A stretch of 64,000 bases of DNA from Syntrophobacteraceae bacterium (GTDB lineage: Bacteria > Desulfobacterota > Syntrophobacteria > Syntrophobacterales > Syntrophobacteraceae), in contig JBEKQE010000017.1 of the NCBI GenBank assembly GCA_049520035.1, positions 3,289 through 67,288 on the forward strand. The letters run 5' to 3'. Under the pieces are notes generated by a model. That model saw only the letters and a list, made by a program, of their open reading frames with translations, was not told the DNA's origin and searched no databases. Below, one piece after another: positions 8,011 to 23,912 of this stretch. Within the stretch, counting starts at the first letter, position 1. The number at the start of each line of letters is the position of its first letter. The translations under genes and the position numbers were made by a program.

Positions 8011-8370
8011 ATGAGCTGGGTTGTTCTCTTTCATGAGGCGTTTGACGCCGAATTTTCAGCATTCCGGCGTGACGTGCAAACGGCGTTGCTCGCTAAGGCG
8101 CGGCTACTCGAATCTTTCGGGCCCCAGCTTGGGCGGCCTCATGTGGACATGCTGAAGGATTCTAAGCACGCTAACATGAAAGAGTTACGCTTTGACGCCG
8201 CTGACGGTGTGTGGCGAGCGGCATTTGCCTTCGATACTCACAGACAGGCCATCATTCTTGTTGCCCGTGACAAATCCGGCGGAAGTGAAAAACGGTTCTA
8301 CCGCTCATTGATTGCAACGGCGGACAAGCGGTTTGACGAGCACCTGGCGCAGCAAGAGAAGGAGTCGTGA
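8011..8370 (+). CDS. RelE/ParE-superfamily toxin (HigB / Gp49-like)
   Basis: 119 aa. KELRFDAADGVWRAAFAFDTHRQAIILVARDKSG fits the Gp49/HigB-type toxin pattern, and an XRE antitoxin gene follows after a 1-nt gap. Confidence 0.7.
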   Translation: MSWVVLFHEAFDAEFSAFRRDVQTALLAKARLLESFGPQLGRPHVDMLKDSKHANMKELRFDAADGVWRAAFAFDTHRQAIILVARDKSGGSEKRFYRSLIATADKRFDEHLAQQEKES

Positions 8371-8371
8371 C

Positions 8372-8785
8372 ATGACGAGAACATTGAATGAGGTCATCAA
8401 AGGGCTTCCTCTCGATCAGCAACAGGAGATCGAAGCGCAAGCAAAACGCCTCATTGAAGAGGAAATGACGCTGCGCGATTTGCGCAAGGCGCACGAGCTT
8501 ACGCAAGAGCGTATGGCCGAGACGCTGCACATCTCACAAGACGGTGTTTCGAGGATAGAAAAGCGCAGTGATTTTTTGCTTTCAACTCTGCGTTCCTATG
8601 TCGAAGCAATGGGCGGCAAGCTACGCCTCATCGCTGAATTTCCCGATCGTAAACCCGTTACGCTTTCCGACTTCAATAGCCTCGACACACACGCTCGACG
8701 AGACAGAAAACCCGCCCCCTCGCGGACAAACGGCAAGCAGAGCGGACGGCCAAAGAAAAAAACAAACACTGCCGATGTCGCATAG
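8372..8785 (+). CDS. XRE-family HTH antitoxin / transcriptional regulator
   Basis: The internal Met of ORF 8312-8785 was chosen as start. The HTH is LRDLRKAHELTQERMAETLHISQDGVSRIEK, followed by a basic C-terminal tail. Confidence 0.75.
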   Translation: MTRTLNEVIKGLPLDQQQEIEAQAKRLIEEEMTLRDLRKAHELTQERMAETLHISQDGVSRIEKRSDFLLSTLRSYVEAMGGKLRLIAEFPDRKPVTLSDFNSLDTHARRDRKPAPSRTNGKQSGRPKKKTNTADVA

Positions 8786-8791
8786 AAGCCG

Positions 8792-9346
8792 TTAGAAGCG
8801 GAGTGCGCTTAAGGGCCTGTAAAGCGTTCGCCGCGAGACGCCGAGCGATTGAGCCACATTGTCAGGGCCTTCCCCCTGCTCTATCAGCTTGCGGGCGTGG
8901 GCGACCTGTTGCGCGGATAGCAGCCGCTTGCGGCCCATCCGCACCCCGCGAGCCACAGCCGCCGCCCTGCCCGCCCTTGTCCGCTCCTGTATCAACGACC
9001 GTTCAAGCTCCGCGAGAATGCCGACCATTTGCCACATGGCGCGGCCCGTGGGTGTTTCCGTGTCGATAGCTTCCGTCAGCGACTGGAAGGCCACGCCCTG
9101 CGCTTTCAGATCATCTAGCAGGGTTATAAGGTCACGCAATGACCGGCCCAGCCGGTCAAGTTTCCAGACCGTCAGCGCGTCGCCAGCCTTGAGGGCCTTC
9201 AGGCACTTTGCCAGCGCTGGCCGCTTGGCGTTCGTGCCGGTGGCTTTGTCGGTAAATATTTTGCCGCACCCTGCCTGCTTTAGAGCAGTCAGTTGCAAGT
9301 CGGGGTTTTGGTCATCATTTGAGACTCGCGCATACCCTATTTTCAT
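8792..9346 (-). CDS. Small serine recombinase (resolvase/invertase family)
   Basis: MKIGYARVSNDDQNPDLQ (catalytic Ser motif), LDRLGRS, and a C-terminal HTH_7 (LGVSRRTLYR). 184 aa counted from the Met at 9346. The 105-codon upstream extension in the ORF track covers a palindromic element and is likely not coding. Confidence 0.9.
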   Translation of the reverse strand: MKIGYARVSNDDQNPDLQLTALKQAGCGKIFTDKATGTNAKRPALAKCLKALKAGDALTVWKLDRLGRSLRDLITLLDDLKAQGVAFQSLTEAIDTETPTGRAMWQMVGILAELERSLIQERTRAGRAAAVARGVRMGRKRLLSAQQVAHARKLIEQGEGPDNVAQSLGVSRRTLYRPLSALRF

Positions 9347-9431
9347 AGCCTCTTTTGTCCCTGATTCTAGTTGGTCGGGGTAAACCTCCGGCTGTGCCGG
9401 TGGACTCCCAAAAGTTTGACATTTGCGGGAG

Positions 9432-9615
9432 CCGTCATTCCGGCAGTCCCGGCGGCGCTCTTGAGCCGGGATCAAGAGCCGGAATCCAGAGTCTTGAAGC
9501 ACGCCCAGACCGTCAGGCTGCTTCCCTTGGCTGTTCGAGCTAACTGGGTCATGCGTGATAAGTCCCGAAAACCCGCTGGATTCCGGCTCAAAAACACTCA
9601 AACACGGAATGACGG
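9432..9615. repeat. Nested inverted repeat upstream of the recombinase gene
   Basis: The outer arms CCGTCATTCCG (9432-9442) and CGGAATGACGG (9605-9615) are perfect. The inner arms GAGCCGGAATCCAG (9476-9489) and CTGGATTCCGGCTC (9576-9589) are also perfect, and the core between them is 86 bp. Confidence 0.8.
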
Positions 9616-9844
9616 GGGTGCGGTAGTCATCTCCTTTGCGGATAGTGTCGGAAGCGAACAAATACCCACAGTCGCTTTGAGCGGTCCATGGTTTTCTGGG
9701 CCTCCGGCTTGGCCGGAGGTAACTGACTCAAGGTTTTTCCTGCATAGCCCGGAGGTCTTTCACCAATCGGTAGAGCACAAGGGGTTCGTCCGGGAAGGGA
9801 TCGAATCCAAAATCAACCGGAAGGCGGGCAGGAAGATAAACGTT

Positions 9845-12869: not shown

Positions 12870-13319
12870 ATGAGAGCGGTAATCCAGCGCGTCCTGGAGG
12901 CGAGCGTCAAAACAGGGGGTGTGGAAATTGCGCGGATCGGCAGGGGCGCGCTGGTCCTGCTCGGGGTCAGCAGCGCAGACTCTGAGGAGGACGCCCGCTA
13001 TCTTGCCGAGAAGACCGTTTATCTTCGAATATTTCCCGATGGAGCAGACAAAATGAATCTCTCGGTTCTGGACATCGAAGGGGAGGTCCTCGTCGTATCG
13101 CAGTTCACTCTATATGGCGACTGCCGCAAAGGCAGGAGACCTTCCTACGCCTCGGCTGCCCGGCCCGATATCGCCCAGGCCCTCTATGAATCTTACGTAA
13201 AAGAGCTTCTCAAATTTACTCCGAAAGTGGGTACAGGGCACTTTCAGGAAATGATGGATGTCTTTCTGGTAAACGACGGGCCGGTCACCCTGCTTCTGGA
13301 CAGCAGGAAAAATTTCTAA
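12870..13319 (+). CDS. dtd: D-aminoacyl-tRNA deacylase
   Basis: MRAVIQRV N-terminus, SQFTLYGD and NDGPVT motifs. 149 aa. Confidence 0.9.
   Translation: MRAVIQRVLEASVKTGGVEIARIGRGALVLLGVSSADSEEDARYLAEKTVYLRIFPDGADKMNLSVLDIEGEVLVVSQFTLYGDCRKGRRPSYASAARPDIAQALYESYVKELLKFTPKVGTGHFQEMMDVFLVNDGPVTLLLDSRKNF
13251..13316 (+). repeat. Direct repeat copy 1 (authentic dtd 3' end)
   Basis: Matches 13538-13603 at 61/66. Confidence 0.9.
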
Positions 13320-13329
13320 ATGACGCCGG

Positions 13330-13467
13330 CTAAAGCACGCTGATCTTGTTGGTTTTCTCCCATGTTCCGTCTTTACAGATCATGCAGATCTCGGAAAGGC
13401 AGATCATCTCCCCGGAAACAGTTCTATTGCCGTCGAAATAACATTCGCTCTCATGAACATTGCTCAT
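13330..13467 (-). CDS. Small Cys-rich hypothetical protein (45 aa from the internal Met)
   Basis: MSNVHESECYFDGNRTVSGEMICLSEICMICKDGTWEKTNKISVL. It lies between the two dtd-end repeats. No family was recognised. Confidence 0.3.
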   Translation of the reverse strand: MSNVHESECYFDGNRTVSGEMICLSEICMICKDGTWEKTNKISVL

Positions 13468-13537
13468 ATTTATTCTCCTTTGACCGGAAACGGCCGATAA
13501 TTCATCTTTTAAGATAATCATTCTTATACGCATCGCA

Positions 13538-13603
13538 ATGATGGAAGTCTTTATGGTAAACGACGGGCCGGTAACGTTGCTTCTGGACAGCAGGAAAAAT
13601 TTC
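13538..13603 (+). repeat. Direct repeat copy 2 (orphan dtd 3' fragment, stop codon lost)
   Basis: It encodes MMEVFMVNDGPVTLLLDSRKNF, against MMDVFLVNDGPVTLLLDSRKNF* in dtd. Confidence 0.9.
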
Positions 13604-13627
13604 AGAACAGGTCTTCAACAGTGGGCT

Positions 13628-14134
13628 TCACACTACCGCCCATGGAACACCTCTCATCTGCCGCATTTCGAGCACGCTCGGGTGTGCGTCGACGGCCTTG
13701 AGGAGCTGCTTCAACTTCTGCTTCACGGTTGCTGGATCGATAGCACGCGGAAACAATATCGAGTGCTTTGCCGGTTGTTCCAGGTGCAATACGACTCCAA
13801 GAGATTTCGATTTCAGTGCTTGCCCAGCGAAATCCTTCTCACCTGAATCATTTGCATTCACTCGAGCGCAAAGCAGCGCGGCCAGGGTATCCCGAACTTT
13901 GCACGCCACCTCTACCGGTAATTCTGTAGGCTTTGTGCGGGGGTTGACACGGTAATCCTTAACTTCGATAAGCCACGCGCATCGTTCCGGTGATAGAGCA
14001 AGCACATCGATCGCCTTTGCGCCGCCGCAGACACTCTGAAATTGATTGCGATAGAAGCTCCAGTCATCGTATTTGGAGGCTTTCCATTCAGCCGGAAATT
14101 GAAACGTGAGTCCGTCTACATTTATGGCAGGCAT
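13628..14134 (-). CDS. Hypothetical protein with a PD-(D/E)xK nuclease-like motif, partner of the AAA ATPase
   Basis: 168 aa. AIDVLAL-x-AWLIEVKDY gives D-x13-E-x-K on predicted strand-like hydrophobic segments. The gene is 5 nt downstream of the ATPase stop. The function is inferred from this motif only. Confidence 0.55.
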   Translation of the reverse strand: MPAINVDGLTFQFPAEWKASKYDDWSFYRNQFQSVCGGAKAIDVLALSPERCAWLIEVKDYRVNPRTKPTELPVEVACKVRDTLAALLCARVNANDSGEKDFAGQALKSKSLGVVLHLEQPAKHSILFPRAIDPATVKQKLKQLLKAVDAHPSVLEMRQMRGVPWAVV

Positions 14135-14139
14135 AGCGG

Positions 14140-15189
14140 CTACTCCATATGCAAATACCGGTCGGACTGACCTAGTTGCTCGTCAAGAGACGTGATCGGC
14201 CCAATATCGTCGACTCCCTTGCCCTGCTTCACAACGACGCCGTCCTCCTCGAGTCGTAGCCCGAAAAACTTGGTGGAGACTTTCCTAAATGCTTTCGTCT
14301 GCAGTAAGATTTCGAACTCTCGCAAAAGAAATAGACTATGTGTGGCGGTGAAGACTTGGATACCACTTTTGCAAAGTTCCATAATAGTAAATGCAACCTT
14401 CTTGATCAACTTTGGGTTGAGATTAGCCTCCGGTTCGTCCCAGAATAGATAACCTTTATCCAGAAGCGATCCTGTGGAAATCAGCCGTGCAATCATGGCA
14501 AGCTTACTCAGCCCCTCTGCAACGAGAGGCATCTCCATCCTGCCTTGGCCGGGTATTCGGAGATAGAACCGGCCGTTCTTATCCAAGTCGATCCTGCCGT
14601 CCATTACCTCTTCGATTGGAGACAGCAGTTTTCTAACCACCTTCTCTTTCGGGCCGCGCAAAGCCGGTGCTCCCAGCAATACGCATGTGTCACGCCAGGT
14701 TTCATCAAACTCCAAATAGTGGTTGTCATAGACTGAAACAAAGTTGGGGAAAATGGTCAGCAACTCCCTGGTAGGCAAAAATACAGGAGATTTTTCCAGC
14801 CAAATCCTGGGTAGCTTTTCTATACCGACCTCAGACTTGCTCGTCGTGGCAAAATTGAAATCAATGTCCAATTTTCGGTCATCGAACACAAAATTCATTT
14901 CGCAACGCTCTCGACCCTGCTTTCGACGGGCGAGCCGCCCCAGTGATTCCGGCCTAAGCACCGCTAATAGCTTGTCTGCCAGCCGGACTTGGAGCACCGT
15001 CTTGGTAGGAGGGCCTGCTTTGGGTTTCCGTCCCTCCTCAGCGCTTACTGCAAGCACTGAATACACCACTCTAAGAAGATGAGACTTGCCTGTACTGTTT
15101 TCTCCTATCACTACATTCAACTGTGGACTGAAGTGAAAGGAAGCCTTGGGGAAAACAGTCAAATTTTTTAAGCCTACAGATTTAAGCAT
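14140..15189 (-). CDS. ABC/OLD-type AAA ATPase (AAA_15/AAA_21-like)
   Basis: Walker [12 protein letters not shown], signature-like AEGLSKLAM, Walker [14 protein letters not shown] and H-loop FTATHS. The start is set at [13 protein letters not shown] (15189), which is preceded by GAGGAG. The ORF-track start at 15291 adds 34 unlikely codons. Confidence 0.8.
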
Positions 15190-15455
15190 CAAGGTCTCCT
15201 CAGAAGTCCATCCGGAGTTGAAGTCCGGATTTAATTCCGATCTCTTGTGATGCGGACTCAATTGCATGCCAACATAGACAATCTGGCACAAAAACCACGG
15301 GAAAGCAAGTGCAGCACCTTTTTATAGGGGCCGCTCACAATCGCCGCACCAATGAGGAAGATGACGATTCGAGCCGGAGTTGCTATGATGGGGAGAAGTG
15401 ATGACGCGATCGAGTCGATCGGGCAAAGATTCTGTTTATCGGGGAAGGCGAGGAT

Positions 15456-15623
15456 ATGTTGTGTGAGATGTGTAAGGGTAGAGGGATAATTTATTGTATT
15501 AGTTGCAAACAGGGGAATATATCTCCGCCATGGCTCTCCGGGCTGGCCAAGGAGAAGTGTTCCGTGTGCAAGGGCAAAAAGGAAATGAAGTGCCCGGTCT
15601 GTGATGGAAAAGGCGAAGTCTGA
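15456..15623 (+). CDS. DnaJ-type zinc-ribbon mini-protein (55 aa, below the ORF-track cutoff)
   Basis: Manual translation gives MLCEMCKGRGIIYCISCKQGNISPPWLSGLAKEKCSVCKGKKEMKCPVCDGKGEV, with four CxxC(x)G motifs. It ends 18 nt before the next gene. Confidence 0.5.
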   Translation: MLCEMCKGRGIIYCISCKQGNISPPWLSGLAKEKCSVCKGKKEMKCPVCDGKGEV

Positions 15624-21769: not shown

Positions 21770-23035
21770 TCAACATTTCTCTTCGGCCACAGACCACTTT
21801 TGCTGGATCGCGCACATAACCCGGTCACGACCAGGCATGTATCCGGAAGGATAAAAGTGCTCAGCCGCTATGTCGAATTGAGTGACATCGTAAACCAAGT
21901 CTGCAGTTACGCCGCGATTGTAGACTGCCAGATCCACGCAGCAACGCCCCGGCGAGAGGTTTATCGGTTCGGTTTCACAAACAACTGTGCCACTGGAAGG
22001 CAAGGTGTCGGGGATCTCACCGGTGCACCAGGTATCCAGAATGTAAATGGCAGCGCCGTTCTGGTCCGACACAGTGACAAGAAAGCGCGGACGCAGCAAG
22101 GGTCTGTCGCTGGCGTATTCAATCGCGATTCGAAGCCGGCTCGTAGTCCTTATAACCAGCGGCTGTTCCTTAGATTCGATGCGAATGGAACGTAACCTTA
22201 CAGTCCCGTCGCCCTGACGATCGATGCGATCTGTCAACGCGGCTGAACCTCCAGACAACGCGGACTCAAGATATCCTTGCACGACCTCAGGCGTTGGCCC
22301 GATCGCCTTCACGCGGCCGGCATCGAACCAAACCGTTTTTTGACAAATGGTCTGGATTGCGTGCATATTGTGACTGACAAACAAGACAGTGCGTCCTGCC
22401 CCGGCAACATCACCCATCTTGCCCAGGCATTTCTTCTGGAACGCAGCGTCGCCCACCGCCAGCACTTCGTCCACCAGCAGGATTTCCGGGTCGAGATGGG
22501 CTGCCACAGAAAACGCCAAACGCGTGAACATTCCACTGGAGTATCGCTTAACGGGTGTGTCGAGGAATTCTTCTACACCGGAAAAGGCGACGATCTCGTC
22601 GAACTTGCGCTTTATCTCTTGCCGTTTCATCCCCAGGAGCATGCCGTTCATAAAAACATTTTCCCGGCCGGTTAGTTCCATATGAAACCCAGTGCCCACT
22701 TCCAACAGGCTCCCCACTCGTCCATAAATGTCTGCATATCCCCTGGTTGGCTCGGTGATGCCCGTCAAGACCTTCAGGAGGGTGCTCTTACCTGCGCCGT
22801 TGCGGCCGATAACTCCGAGGATCTCGCCGTGGTTCACCTCTAAATCGACGTCGCGCAGTGCCCAGATCCAGCCGGGTCCGGCGGCATGGTTCCGGCCGGA
22901 TACCCAGAATCGGGCAGCACGCAGCGATGCGGATGCAGCACGCACCAGCGCTTCGCGAAGTGTCGGATACCGCTCACGAATTCCAATCCGGTAGCGCTTG
23001 GATAACCCCGAGATTTGTATGGCTAAGTTATTCAT
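21770..23035 (-). CDS. Polysaccharide/O-antigen ABC exporter ATP-binding protein (Wzt/TagH-like) with C-terminal extra domain
   Basis: Walker A GRNGAGKST, signature YSSGM, Walker B LLVDEVLAVGD, plus a ~170-aa C-terminal beta-rich domain as in Wzt. Confidence 0.85.
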   Translation of the reverse strand: MNNLAIQISGLSKRYRIGIRERYPTLREALVRAASASLRAARFWVSGRNHAAGPGWIWALRDVDLEVNHGEILGVIGRNGAGKSTLLKVLTGITEPTRGYADIYGRVGSLLEVGTGFHMELTGRENVFMNGMLLGMKRQEIKRKFDEIVAFSGVEEFLDTPVKRYSSGMFTRLAFSVAAHLDPEILLVDEVLAVGDAAFQKKCLGKMGDVAGAGRTVLFVSHNMHAIQTICQKTVWFDAGRVKAIGPTPEVVQGYLESALSGGSAALTDRIDRQGDGTVRLRSIRIESKEQPLVIRTTSRLRIAIEYASDRPLLRPRFLVTVSDQNGAAIYILDTWCTGEIPDTLPSSGTVVCETEPINLSPGRCCVDLAVYNRGVTADLVYDVTQFDIAAEHFYPSGYMPGRDRVMCAIQQKWSVAEEKC

Positions 23036-23042
23036 TTTAATA

Positions 23043-23912
23043 TCATATGATATCGGCGAATGATTTTTCCATCCTCCGGAAATAAAAGAGCCCGCCGATC
23101 AACAACACCGCCGTCGCCGCTACAGATACAAGCAACATTGGATCTGGAGGCGTTTTACCCAACAAAGCCCAACGAAACCCATTTACCACACCTACCATTG
23201 GGTTAATCCCATATAGCGCCTGCCACTTGGGAGGCACCAGAGAGCTCGAATAGGCGACCGGTGTGACGAACAGCCAAAATTGCGCCAAGAACGGAATTGT
23301 GTAGCGCACGTCGCGATATCTGACGTTGAATGCAGACAGCCACAGCCCTACAGCCAGTGCTGCCATCAGCGCAAGTAAGGTAAATAAGGGCAGTGTCAGA
23401 ATGGCCCAACCCAGGTGGATGCCATAGTAAAGCATCATCGCTATCAACGCCCCGAAAGCGATTGTGAAATCAACCAGGCCGGCGATCACCGATGCGAGAG
23501 GAACAATCAACCTTGGAAAATACACCTTGGTTATCACCTGTGCATCTTCCACAATTCTGTTGCTTGACTGGGTAAGGGCGTAGGCGAAGAGTTGCCATGG
23601 CACCAGCCCGCAGTAGGCAAAGATTGGATAGGGAATACCGTCGGAGGGCACCCCCGCCAGGTTGCCGAAAAAGATGCTAAAGACCACCATTGTCAGCACC
23701 GGTTGGAGCACAGCCCAGGCAACACCAAGCAAAGTTTGCTTGTATCTGACCTTTACGTCGCGAAGCGCATAGAAAACAACCAACTCGCGATACCGCCAGA
23801 GCTCGGCAAAATCAATTGCTACCCAACCGGGACGTGCCTGTCGCCGAACTACGGGCTGGCTTGCGTCCCCGCCGGTTGTGTGTTGTATCGCCCAGTATAT
23901 AACGTTTAACAT
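23043..23912 (-). CDS. ABC-2 type polysaccharide exporter permease (Wzm/TagG-like)
   Basis: 289 aa and polytopic, with an ABC-2 pattern (DVKVRYKQTLLGVAWAVLQP). It is adjacent to the ATPase gene. Confidence 0.85.
   Translation of the reverse strand: MLNVIYWAIQHTTGGDASQPVVRRQARPGWVAIDFAELWRYRELVVFYALRDVKVRYKQTLLGVAWAVLQPVLTMVVFSIFFGNLAGVPSDGIPYPIFAYCGLVPWQLFAYALTQSSNRIVEDAQVITKVYFPRLIVPLASVIAGLVDFTIAFGALIAMMLYYGIHLGWAILTLPLFTLLALMAALAVGLWLSAFNVRYRDVRYTIPFLAQFWLFVTPVAYSSSLVPPKWQALYGINPMVGVVNGFRWALLGKTPPDPMLLVSVAATAVLLIGGLFYFRRMEKSFADII

Follow-up and report, generated by a model that had tools for sequence, protein, structure and literature searches.

Within a 64,000-nucleotide (nt) stretch of the genome of an uncultured Syntrophobacteraceae bacterium (contig JBEKQE010000017.1 of assembly GCA_049520035.1), hereafter called the window, two tightly coupled genes encode an ATP-binding cassette (ABC) ATPase of 349 amino acids (aa) and a 168-aa protein with a PD-(D/E)xK motif. 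We conclude, with a probability of roughly 85%, that this pair is HEC-02, an anti-phage system of two genes, in a copy carried on the chromosome, and that it works by the proposed mechanism of an ATPase-controlled nuclease. An initial annotation, made from the sequence alone, had read the pair as a defence-type, accessory module of an ATPase and a PD-(D/E)xK-motif protein, and this architecture and its logic were recognized correctly. The accompanying view that the pair was undescribed and not a named system was wrong, as PADLOC holds full-length HEC-02 models and the system was described by Payne et al. in 2024 (bioRxiv 10.1101/2024.01.29.577857). The pair is already known, in the sense that the system is named, can be searched for with PADLOC, and has experimental support in a homologue; the window copy is an ordinary member of its family.

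Layout and identity of the gene pair

The features of the locus are given below in window coordinates; L numbers denote loci of other genomes used for comparison.

14140-15189, minus strand: HEC-02 ABC ATPase gene (HEC-02A of Payne et al.), 349 aa; assigned from PADLOC, Pfam, homology with the Dickeya system, and Foldseek
13628-14134, minus strand: HEC-02 small effector gene (HEC-02B of Payne et al.), 168 aa; putative PD-(D/E)xK protein, NERD-like
15196-15201, minus strand: Shine-Dalgarno sequence GAGGAG, 6 nt before the ATPase ATG; read from the sequence
14135-14146, minus strand: gene junction with a translational-coupling layout (GGAG in the last ATPase codons, TAG, 5-nt gap, ATG)
15190-15353, minus strand: leader and probable promoter region, which arrived with the pair; nucleotide homology extends as far as 15315 for L001 and 15247 for L161
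13537-15353, no strand: accessory block of ~1.8 kb, comprising the dtd remnant, the gene pair, and the leader; missing from the closest relatives
13537-13603, plus strand: nonfunctional remnant of the 3′ end of dtd (D-Tyr-tRNA deacylase gene), without a stop codon, 93% identical to the resident copy at 13250-13316

The ATPase gene is followed, after a gap of 5 nt (14135-14139), by the gene for the small protein, which is served by a GGAG that lies within the last codons of the first gene (14143-14146). The ATG at 15189 was preferred as the ATPase start over the TTG at 15291, to which the mechanical open reading frame (ORF) runs on, because homologues of this protein are 347 to 354 aa long and start with MLK. 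The coupled minus-strand arrangement, the 5-nt gap, and the GAGGAG before the first ATG had been pointed out in the initial annotation, and all were confirmed on the sequence. A consensus promoter scan of the minus strand upstream of the ATPase gene called none, and homology to the empty-site relative L083, described below, restarts only at 15354, beyond the leader. At 15213-15239, this leader contains the arrangement TCCGGA-N7-TCCGGA, which is a hairpin or else a pair of palindromic sites; L001 and L161 retain both hexamers, with a different 7-nt spacer in L001, and more distant loci lack them.

Both proteins were identified as HEC-02 by PADLOC, the search that the initial annotation had itself suggested, using the models of PADLOC-DB v2.0.0 (2023). 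The ATPase matched PDLC04146 over residues 1-348 of 349 with an expect value (E) of 2.9e-166 and PDLC04213 with an E of 4e-79, and the small protein matched PDLC04145 over residues 3-167 of 168 (E 5.3e-65) and, through its N-terminal core, PDLC04228 (E 7e-15). The labels in PADLOC-DB are inconsistent: the ATPase model PDLC04146 is named “HEC-02B” and the small-protein model PDLC04145 “HEC-02A,” which is opposite to PDLC04213/4214, to PDLC04228/4229, and to Payne et al., for whom A is the ATPase. A search of NCBIfam returned no specific model for the proteins of the pair, and the small protein is identical to a deposited hypothetical protein of a Syntrophobacteraceae metagenome-assembled genome.

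HEC-02 stands for Hma-embedded candidate 02, one of nine such candidates, and was described as an ABC ATPase (HEC-02A) with a NERD PD-(D/E)xK-type protein (HEC-02B) carrying a (D/E/Q)xK motif (10.1101/2024.01.29.577857). The tested pair, from Dickeya dianthicola NCPPB 3534 (WP_024108366 and WP_024108365), cut the plaquing of BASEL phages by orders of magnitude in E. coli, and both genes were needed (10.1101/2024.01.29.577857). End to end, the window ATPase is 53% identical to the Dickeya ATPase (E 2e-137) and the small protein 46% identical to the Dickeya HEC-02B (E 1e-47). The two systems share the same families, gene order, and tight coupling, with proteins of 349 and 168 aa in the window and 342 and 169 aa in Dickeya, and the ATPase motifs and the D...ExK motif are common to both; the host of the window copy is, however, an uncultured member of the Syntrophobacteraceae and not an enterobacterium. 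In addition, the window copy lies outside any Hma (helicase, methylase, ATPase) system, no homologue of HmaA, HmaB, or HmaC being present in the window. Embedding was the route of discovery rather than a requirement for membership, and HEC cassettes are widespread irrespective of Hma (Fig. S1 legend of 10.1101/2024.01.29.577857).

Predicted proteins and mode of action

Every motif quoted in the initial annotation for an ABC/OLD-type ATPase is present in the first protein, namely Walker A (GENSTGKS, residues 29-36, with K35), the signature-like AEGLSKLAM at 224-232, Walker B (LFWDEPE, with D251 and E252), and the H-loop ATHS with H284; R141 occupies the position equivalent to the Q-loop. K35, D251, E252, and H284 were invariant in an alignment of 47 sequences, as were all ABC motifs across the family alignment. 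The protein has neither a coiled-coil insertion nor any further domain before it ends at residue 349, and in Pfam it matched only the generic families AAA_21 and AAA_15. Its predicted model, with a predicted local distance difference test score (pLDDT) of 75 and a predicted template modeling (TM) score (pTM) of 0.80, retrieved 568 PDB chains at E ≤0.001 in Foldseek, headed by Septu PtuA, SMC heads, Rad50, and retron-associated PtuA (E 1e-11 to 1e-9, TM ~0.5). The model thereby predicts an ABC ATPase of the SMC/Rad50/PtuA-like kind, in agreement with Payne et al. Residues 141-173 (window 14671-14769) form the most conserved stretch of the family, with many invariant residues, and are also the sole long segment of the ATPase with a pLDDT below 50, for which a shallow alignment is a possible cause. 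This segment may be a candidate surface for interaction with the partner or the trigger.

The D-x13-ExK arrangement that the initial annotation had seen in the second protein corresponds to D43-x13-E57-V-K59. Among 103 diverse homologues, D43 and E57 were invariant and K59 was retained in more than 90%. The AlphaFold2 model (pLDDT 90.8) shows a helix at 26-35, a strand at 44-47 running on from D43, a second strand at 52-60 bearing E57 and K59, and a helix at 69-93. The conserved D...(D/E)xK motif is placed on consecutive strands after a helix, and the modeled order of elements fits the core of the PD-(D/E)xK fold. As the initial annotation had stated, the 168-aa protein is neither HNH nor TOPRIM: PADLOC and Pfam gave no PtuB, HNH, TOPRIM, or DUF4435 match. 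Sequence and profile searches against PDB chains found no match either. Subthreshold NERD matches were obtained for 14 of 44 and for 19 of 103 family members, the best with an E of 5e-04, and pPIWI_RE_REase and DUF234, both of the PD-(D/E)xK type, were also among the weak matches of family members. The NERD domain (PF08378) is a branch of the PD-(D/E)xK superfamily. Bridging to NERD by a profile search of 1.84 billion representatives was unsuccessful, the 150 matches listed all having E ≤1e-38. Payne et al. aligned HEC-02B to a predicted NERD model (10.1101/2024.01.29.577857). Assignment of the small protein as a nuclease is plausible from its motif, the weak NERD matches, and the literature.

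For the mode of action, PARIS, Septu, and the two-gene system WonAB (ATPase WonA and nuclease WonB) served as models. By analogy with them, the ATPase would act as sensor and the small protein as effector, the ATPase dimerizing via its ATP sites and holding or controlling the nuclease in a complex. A cue from phage infection would then shift the ATPase to another conformation or nucleotide state, and this change of state would license the nuclease to cut nucleic acid, whether DNA or RNA. Cutting would stop the phage from multiplying, probably to the detriment of the infected cell, and the outcome would be abortive.

A more specific proposal is that HEC-02B forms a structurally distinct restriction-endonuclease-like branch with host or phage RNA (tRNA or rRNA) rather than phage DNA as its substrate, as has been proposed for WonB and shown for PARIS. 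We consider this tentative and rather doubtful, yet tenable, because the confident model has no significant neighbor among solved or viral predicted structures, because the literature reports no substrate, and because residues 141-173 of the ATPase are the most conserved and yet modeled poorly, as a binding surface might be. If the proposal is true, HEC-02 would abort infection through a stop of translation.

Several observations weigh against the reading of the pair as an HEC-02 copy that works by a controlled nuclease. Foldseek searches with the small-protein model gave no match at E <0.001 (best E 0.09 in PDB and 0.0075 in BFVD, TM ≤0.33); the weak lists include several PD-(D/E)xK proteins (MUS81, McrC, OkrAI, ERCC4, VRR-NUC, and Mrr), and the searches speak neither for nor against the restriction-endonuclease-like fold named as a check in the initial annotation. 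The Pfam NERD match of the window protein (PF08378) lies below threshold, at 13.4 versus 22.1 bits (E 0.11, residues 23-62). This weak region does include D43 and E57-x-K59, but only the N-terminal core aligns and no HEC-02B member reaches the Pfam threshold (best of 103, E 5e-04). As far as the accessible literature goes, no nuclease activity has been reported for any HEC-02B, and the sensor/effector model is drawn by analogy. The experimental defence data concern the Dickeya pair in E. coli rather than the window copy or a near host. PADLOC found no other system in the 64-kb window, and the locus does not lie in a defence island. Finally, the compositional deviation of the pair is weak. Its GC content of 0.502 compares with a mean of 0.537 for the window (standard deviation, 0.028; 9.6th percentile), and its GC at third codon positions is ~0.55 against 0.59 to 0.66 in the neighbors; the description of the pair as richer in AT than its neighbors in the initial annotation thus stood in direction, but the deviation is marginal. 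For the window pair itself, family membership, intact motifs, obligate linkage, purifying selection, and accessory status are established from its sequence and comparison with relatives.

Linkage, selection, and insertion history

Homologues of the small protein form 2065 clusters at 90% identity, and a profile search recovered 1549 clusters (50% identity representatives) at E ≤0.001; those of the ATPase form at least 4476 clusters. A pattern-limited scan that covered a single genome for each species yielded 439 loci, 80 of which were retrieved for inspection of their neighborhoods. In all 80, the ATPase gene lies directly upstream of the small-protein gene, on the same strand and tightly spaced, so the co-occurrence of the pair outside the window genome, which the initial annotation had proposed as a check, was found throughout. 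The retrieved loci come from Planctomycetota, Cyanobacteria, Gammaproteobacteria, Chlorobiota, Chloroflexota, Myxococcota, Nitrospinota, and others, at 51 to 74% identity, and this patchy distribution across phyla points to horizontal spread. Few HEC-02 homologues occur on plasmids (7 of 72,556 records) or in phages (2 records). HmaB and/or HmaC flank 17 of the 80 loci, matching the setting of the original discovery. At L079:43-12404 (Marinomonas polaris DSM 16579), the order is HmaA, PtuA, PtuB, HmaB, HEC-02, HmaC, and then a CBASS-type cyclase, i.e., one Hma system with two embedded systems, Septu (PtuA, PtuB) and HEC-02. Damaged copies occur at two loci: in L061:1377-2099, owing to an internal deletion, ATPase residues 1-104 lead directly into the nuclease at about its residue 24, and in L161:4942-5995 the ATPase is split between ORFs of 96 and 242 aa.

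The ratio of nonsynonymous to synonymous substitution rates (dN/dS) of both genes is 0.06 to 0.23 versus L001, L161, and L162, similar to that of dtd and the neighboring HD-domain gene. Such low values, like those of the housekeeping neighbors, indicate that the window copy is maintained by purifying selection. Given the numbers of homologue clusters (2065 and 4476) and these ratios, the two ORFs are not chance ORFs. It is very unlikely that the window copy is an inactive or decaying HEC-02 relic. Decayed copies do occur elsewhere, such as the deletion fusion of L061 and the split ATPase of L161, and the window copy stands alone among housekeeping genes, but here both frames are intact and of full length with all catalytic residues present, the ribosome-binding sites are good, and the dN/dS versus the three relatives stays at 0.06 to 0.23.

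The immediate surroundings are housekeeping genes. On one side of the pair are genes for a 4-alpha-glucanotransferase, an HD-domain protein, and dtd, and on the other a 55-aa zinc-finger ORF, an aldehyde dehydrogenase, and a sigma-54 activator, so that annotation of the neighbors bore out the housekeeping genes seen on both flanks in the initial reading. Relatives of this region were found via the HD-domain gene, the closest being L083 (95% identical in the HD protein, 89% in dtd, and 84% in aldehyde dehydrogenase) and L084. Both have the order dtd, small Cys-rich ORF, zinc-finger ORF, and aldehyde dehydrogenase, without HEC-02. Homology between the window and L083 ends at 13539 and restarts at 15354, leaving ~1.8 kb in the window against ~29 nt in L083. 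The pair, present or absent among close relatives, is accessory, and the ATPase is not the housekeeping paralogue in a conserved core context that the initial annotation had named as a counterargument.

These observations bear on a further explanation, in which the pair would be a housekeeping module for DNA repair or chromosome maintenance, made up of a RecF/RecN/SbcC-like ATPase and a partner nuclease. Weak matches of the first ~50 residues to Pfam SMC_N and NCBIfam RecF and Rad50 speak for it, as do the SMC and Rad50 heads among the Foldseek matches and the housekeeping flanks. The sequence matches are nevertheless far under their cutoffs and confined to the P-loop region (RecF TIGR00611, 18.4 versus 172 bits; SMC_N, 27.2 versus 40), and the ATPase is without a coiled-coil insertion. 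Moreover, the pair is missing at the same site in the closest relatives, its spread across phyla is patchy, at 55 to 70% identity, HEC-02 frequently lies within the Hma defence system, and neither a fixed core position across a clade nor a DNA-damage phenotype of deletion mutants has been seen. We regard this explanation as extremely improbable and the pair as an accessory HEC-02 system.

How the block was acquired can be read in part from its dtd-derived end. The duplicated dtd 3′ end beside the pair, noticed in the initial annotation, was confirmed as a direct repeat of 67 nt (13250-13316 and 13537-13603) with 93% identity. In L162 (GCA_027403595.1) and L001, the real end of dtd abuts the HEC-02B stop codon, and window 13537-15193 aligns collinearly with L162, at 75% nucleotide identity. 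This abutment and collinearity indicate that the remnant is the scar of a former dtd/HEC-02 junction, carried along with the pair. The closest cassette, with 87% nucleotide identity over 13612-15247, is that of L161, where it lies in an unrelated genomic context, and the accessory block has no recombinase of its own. The two dtd copies were also considered as att sites of an integrated island. This was rejected, as they are two copies 287 nt apart that enclose only a 45-aa ORF, and the second copy is collinear with the real dtd/HEC-02 junction of L162. A defence hot spot downstream of dtd was not supported, since inspection of ORFs in relatives found unrelated genes there that do not look like defence genes, for instance those of radical-SAM-like and membrane proteins. 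The ends of the block, at window 13530-13547 and 15347-15361, carry the similar short sequences GCATCGCAATGATGGAAG and GCACCAATGAGGAAG, and this similarity could reflect microhomology used at insertion. The dtd scar and the clean empty-site relatives record the passage of a cassette between related genomes without a recombinase, and the block presents a solitary 1.8-kb HEC-02 in a lineage of anaerobic syntrophs, far from the enterobacterial test case.

Other features of the window were noted as well. An accessory patch at 8011-9661, ~4 kb from the pair and directly after NADH dehydrogenase genes, comprises the following:

8011-8370: Gp49/HigB-like toxin ORF
8312-8785: HTH_3 antitoxin-like ORF, overlapping the toxin ORF
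8792-9661, minus strand: serine recombinase/resolvase

The 45-aa Cys-rich ORF between the dtd copies (13330-13467, minus strand; MSNVHESECYFDGN...CMICKDGTWEK) has a good AGGAG ribosome-binding site, belongs to no Pfam family, and is kept beside dtd in L083 (70%), L084 (74%), L087, and L089. The 55-aa ORF at 15456-15623 (plus strand), immediately upstream of the aldehyde dehydrogenase gene, contains CxxCxGxG zinc-finger repeats (BSD2_CRD, 26.3 bits versus a cutoff of 27) and is 78 to 89% identical in L083, L084, and L092. At 21770-23912 (minus strand), near glycosyltransferase genes, lie a Wzt-type ABC exporter ATPase (ABC_tran and Wzt_C) and an ABC-2 permease. This exporter ATPase (21770-23035) accounts for a PADLOC mad3 match (E 1.6e-17), and a second defence ATPase in the window was rejected.

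Comparison with known systems

Among known systems, the ATPase model is structurally closest to PtuA of Septu and retron-associated PtuAB (8eea, 8sux, and 8ee4; E 2.6e-11, TM ~0.5), and Septu, too, is a two-gene system of an ATPase and a nuclease. The PtuA models of PADLOC, however, match only the P-loop region of the window ATPase (E 5e-09), and the Septu partner PtuB is an HNH nuclease, whereas the window partner has no HNH motif. PARIS, Gabija, and OLD belong to the same broad class of ABC ATPases, with partial PADLOC matches to AriA (E 3e-18), GajA (~1e-07), and Old (~1e-08), but they act through a TOPRIM effector, as a domain or as a protein, and none was found in the window pair. PD-T4-4 (Vassallo et al. 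2022, in PADLOC) likewise has two genes, one of them for a related ABC ATPase, and it is listed with a PD-(D/E)xK partner in the WonAB paper (PMC12137116). Its ATPase model PDLC04033 matched residues 186-297 (E 1.8e-14), a match limited to the C-terminal half, and the small protein gave no PD-T4-4_B match.

WonAB, from the WASA-1 prophage of Vibrio cholerae (Nat Microbiol 2025), consists of an OLD-type ABC ATPase and a 16-kDa PD-(D/E)xK protein, both of which are required, and its function depends on the ATPase motifs and on the lysine of the nuclease (PMC12137116). The nuclease WonB is unstable and toxic only with an active ATPase, and the system aborts infection via a shutdown of translation without degradation of DNA (PMC12137116). 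The two are nonetheless separate families. Comparison of the HEC-02B profile with two WonB proteins by hhalign was not significant, with E values of 0.019 (probability, 2.4%) and 0.54, and in the first of these the alignment is confined to the D...ExK stretch; WonA homologues are also longer and differ in their N-terminal sequence. WonAB was therefore taken as an analogue and not as a relative.

This analogue also bears on whether the pair might be a toxin-antitoxin or addiction module, with the small nuclease as toxin and the ATPase as antitoxin, that mainly stabilizes the DNA segment carrying it. A small cassette of two tightly coupled genes that passes from genome to genome without its own recombinase would suit such a role, the Pfam name of AAA_21 is “putative AbiEii toxin, type IV TA system” (TA, toxin-antitoxin), and surplus nuclease is toxic in WonAB (PMC12137116). 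Yet the tested Dickeya homologue lowers phage plaquing by orders of magnitude, and simple sequestration is excluded for WonAB, in which WonB toxicity needs active WonA (PMC12137116). We consider a pure addiction role unlikely, and defence and toxin-antitoxin-like behavior are compatible, which makes it more a nuance than a true alternative. For HEC-02 as an anti-phage system built from an ABC ATPase and a small PD-(D/E)xK protein, WonAB is the nearest worked example of the architecture.

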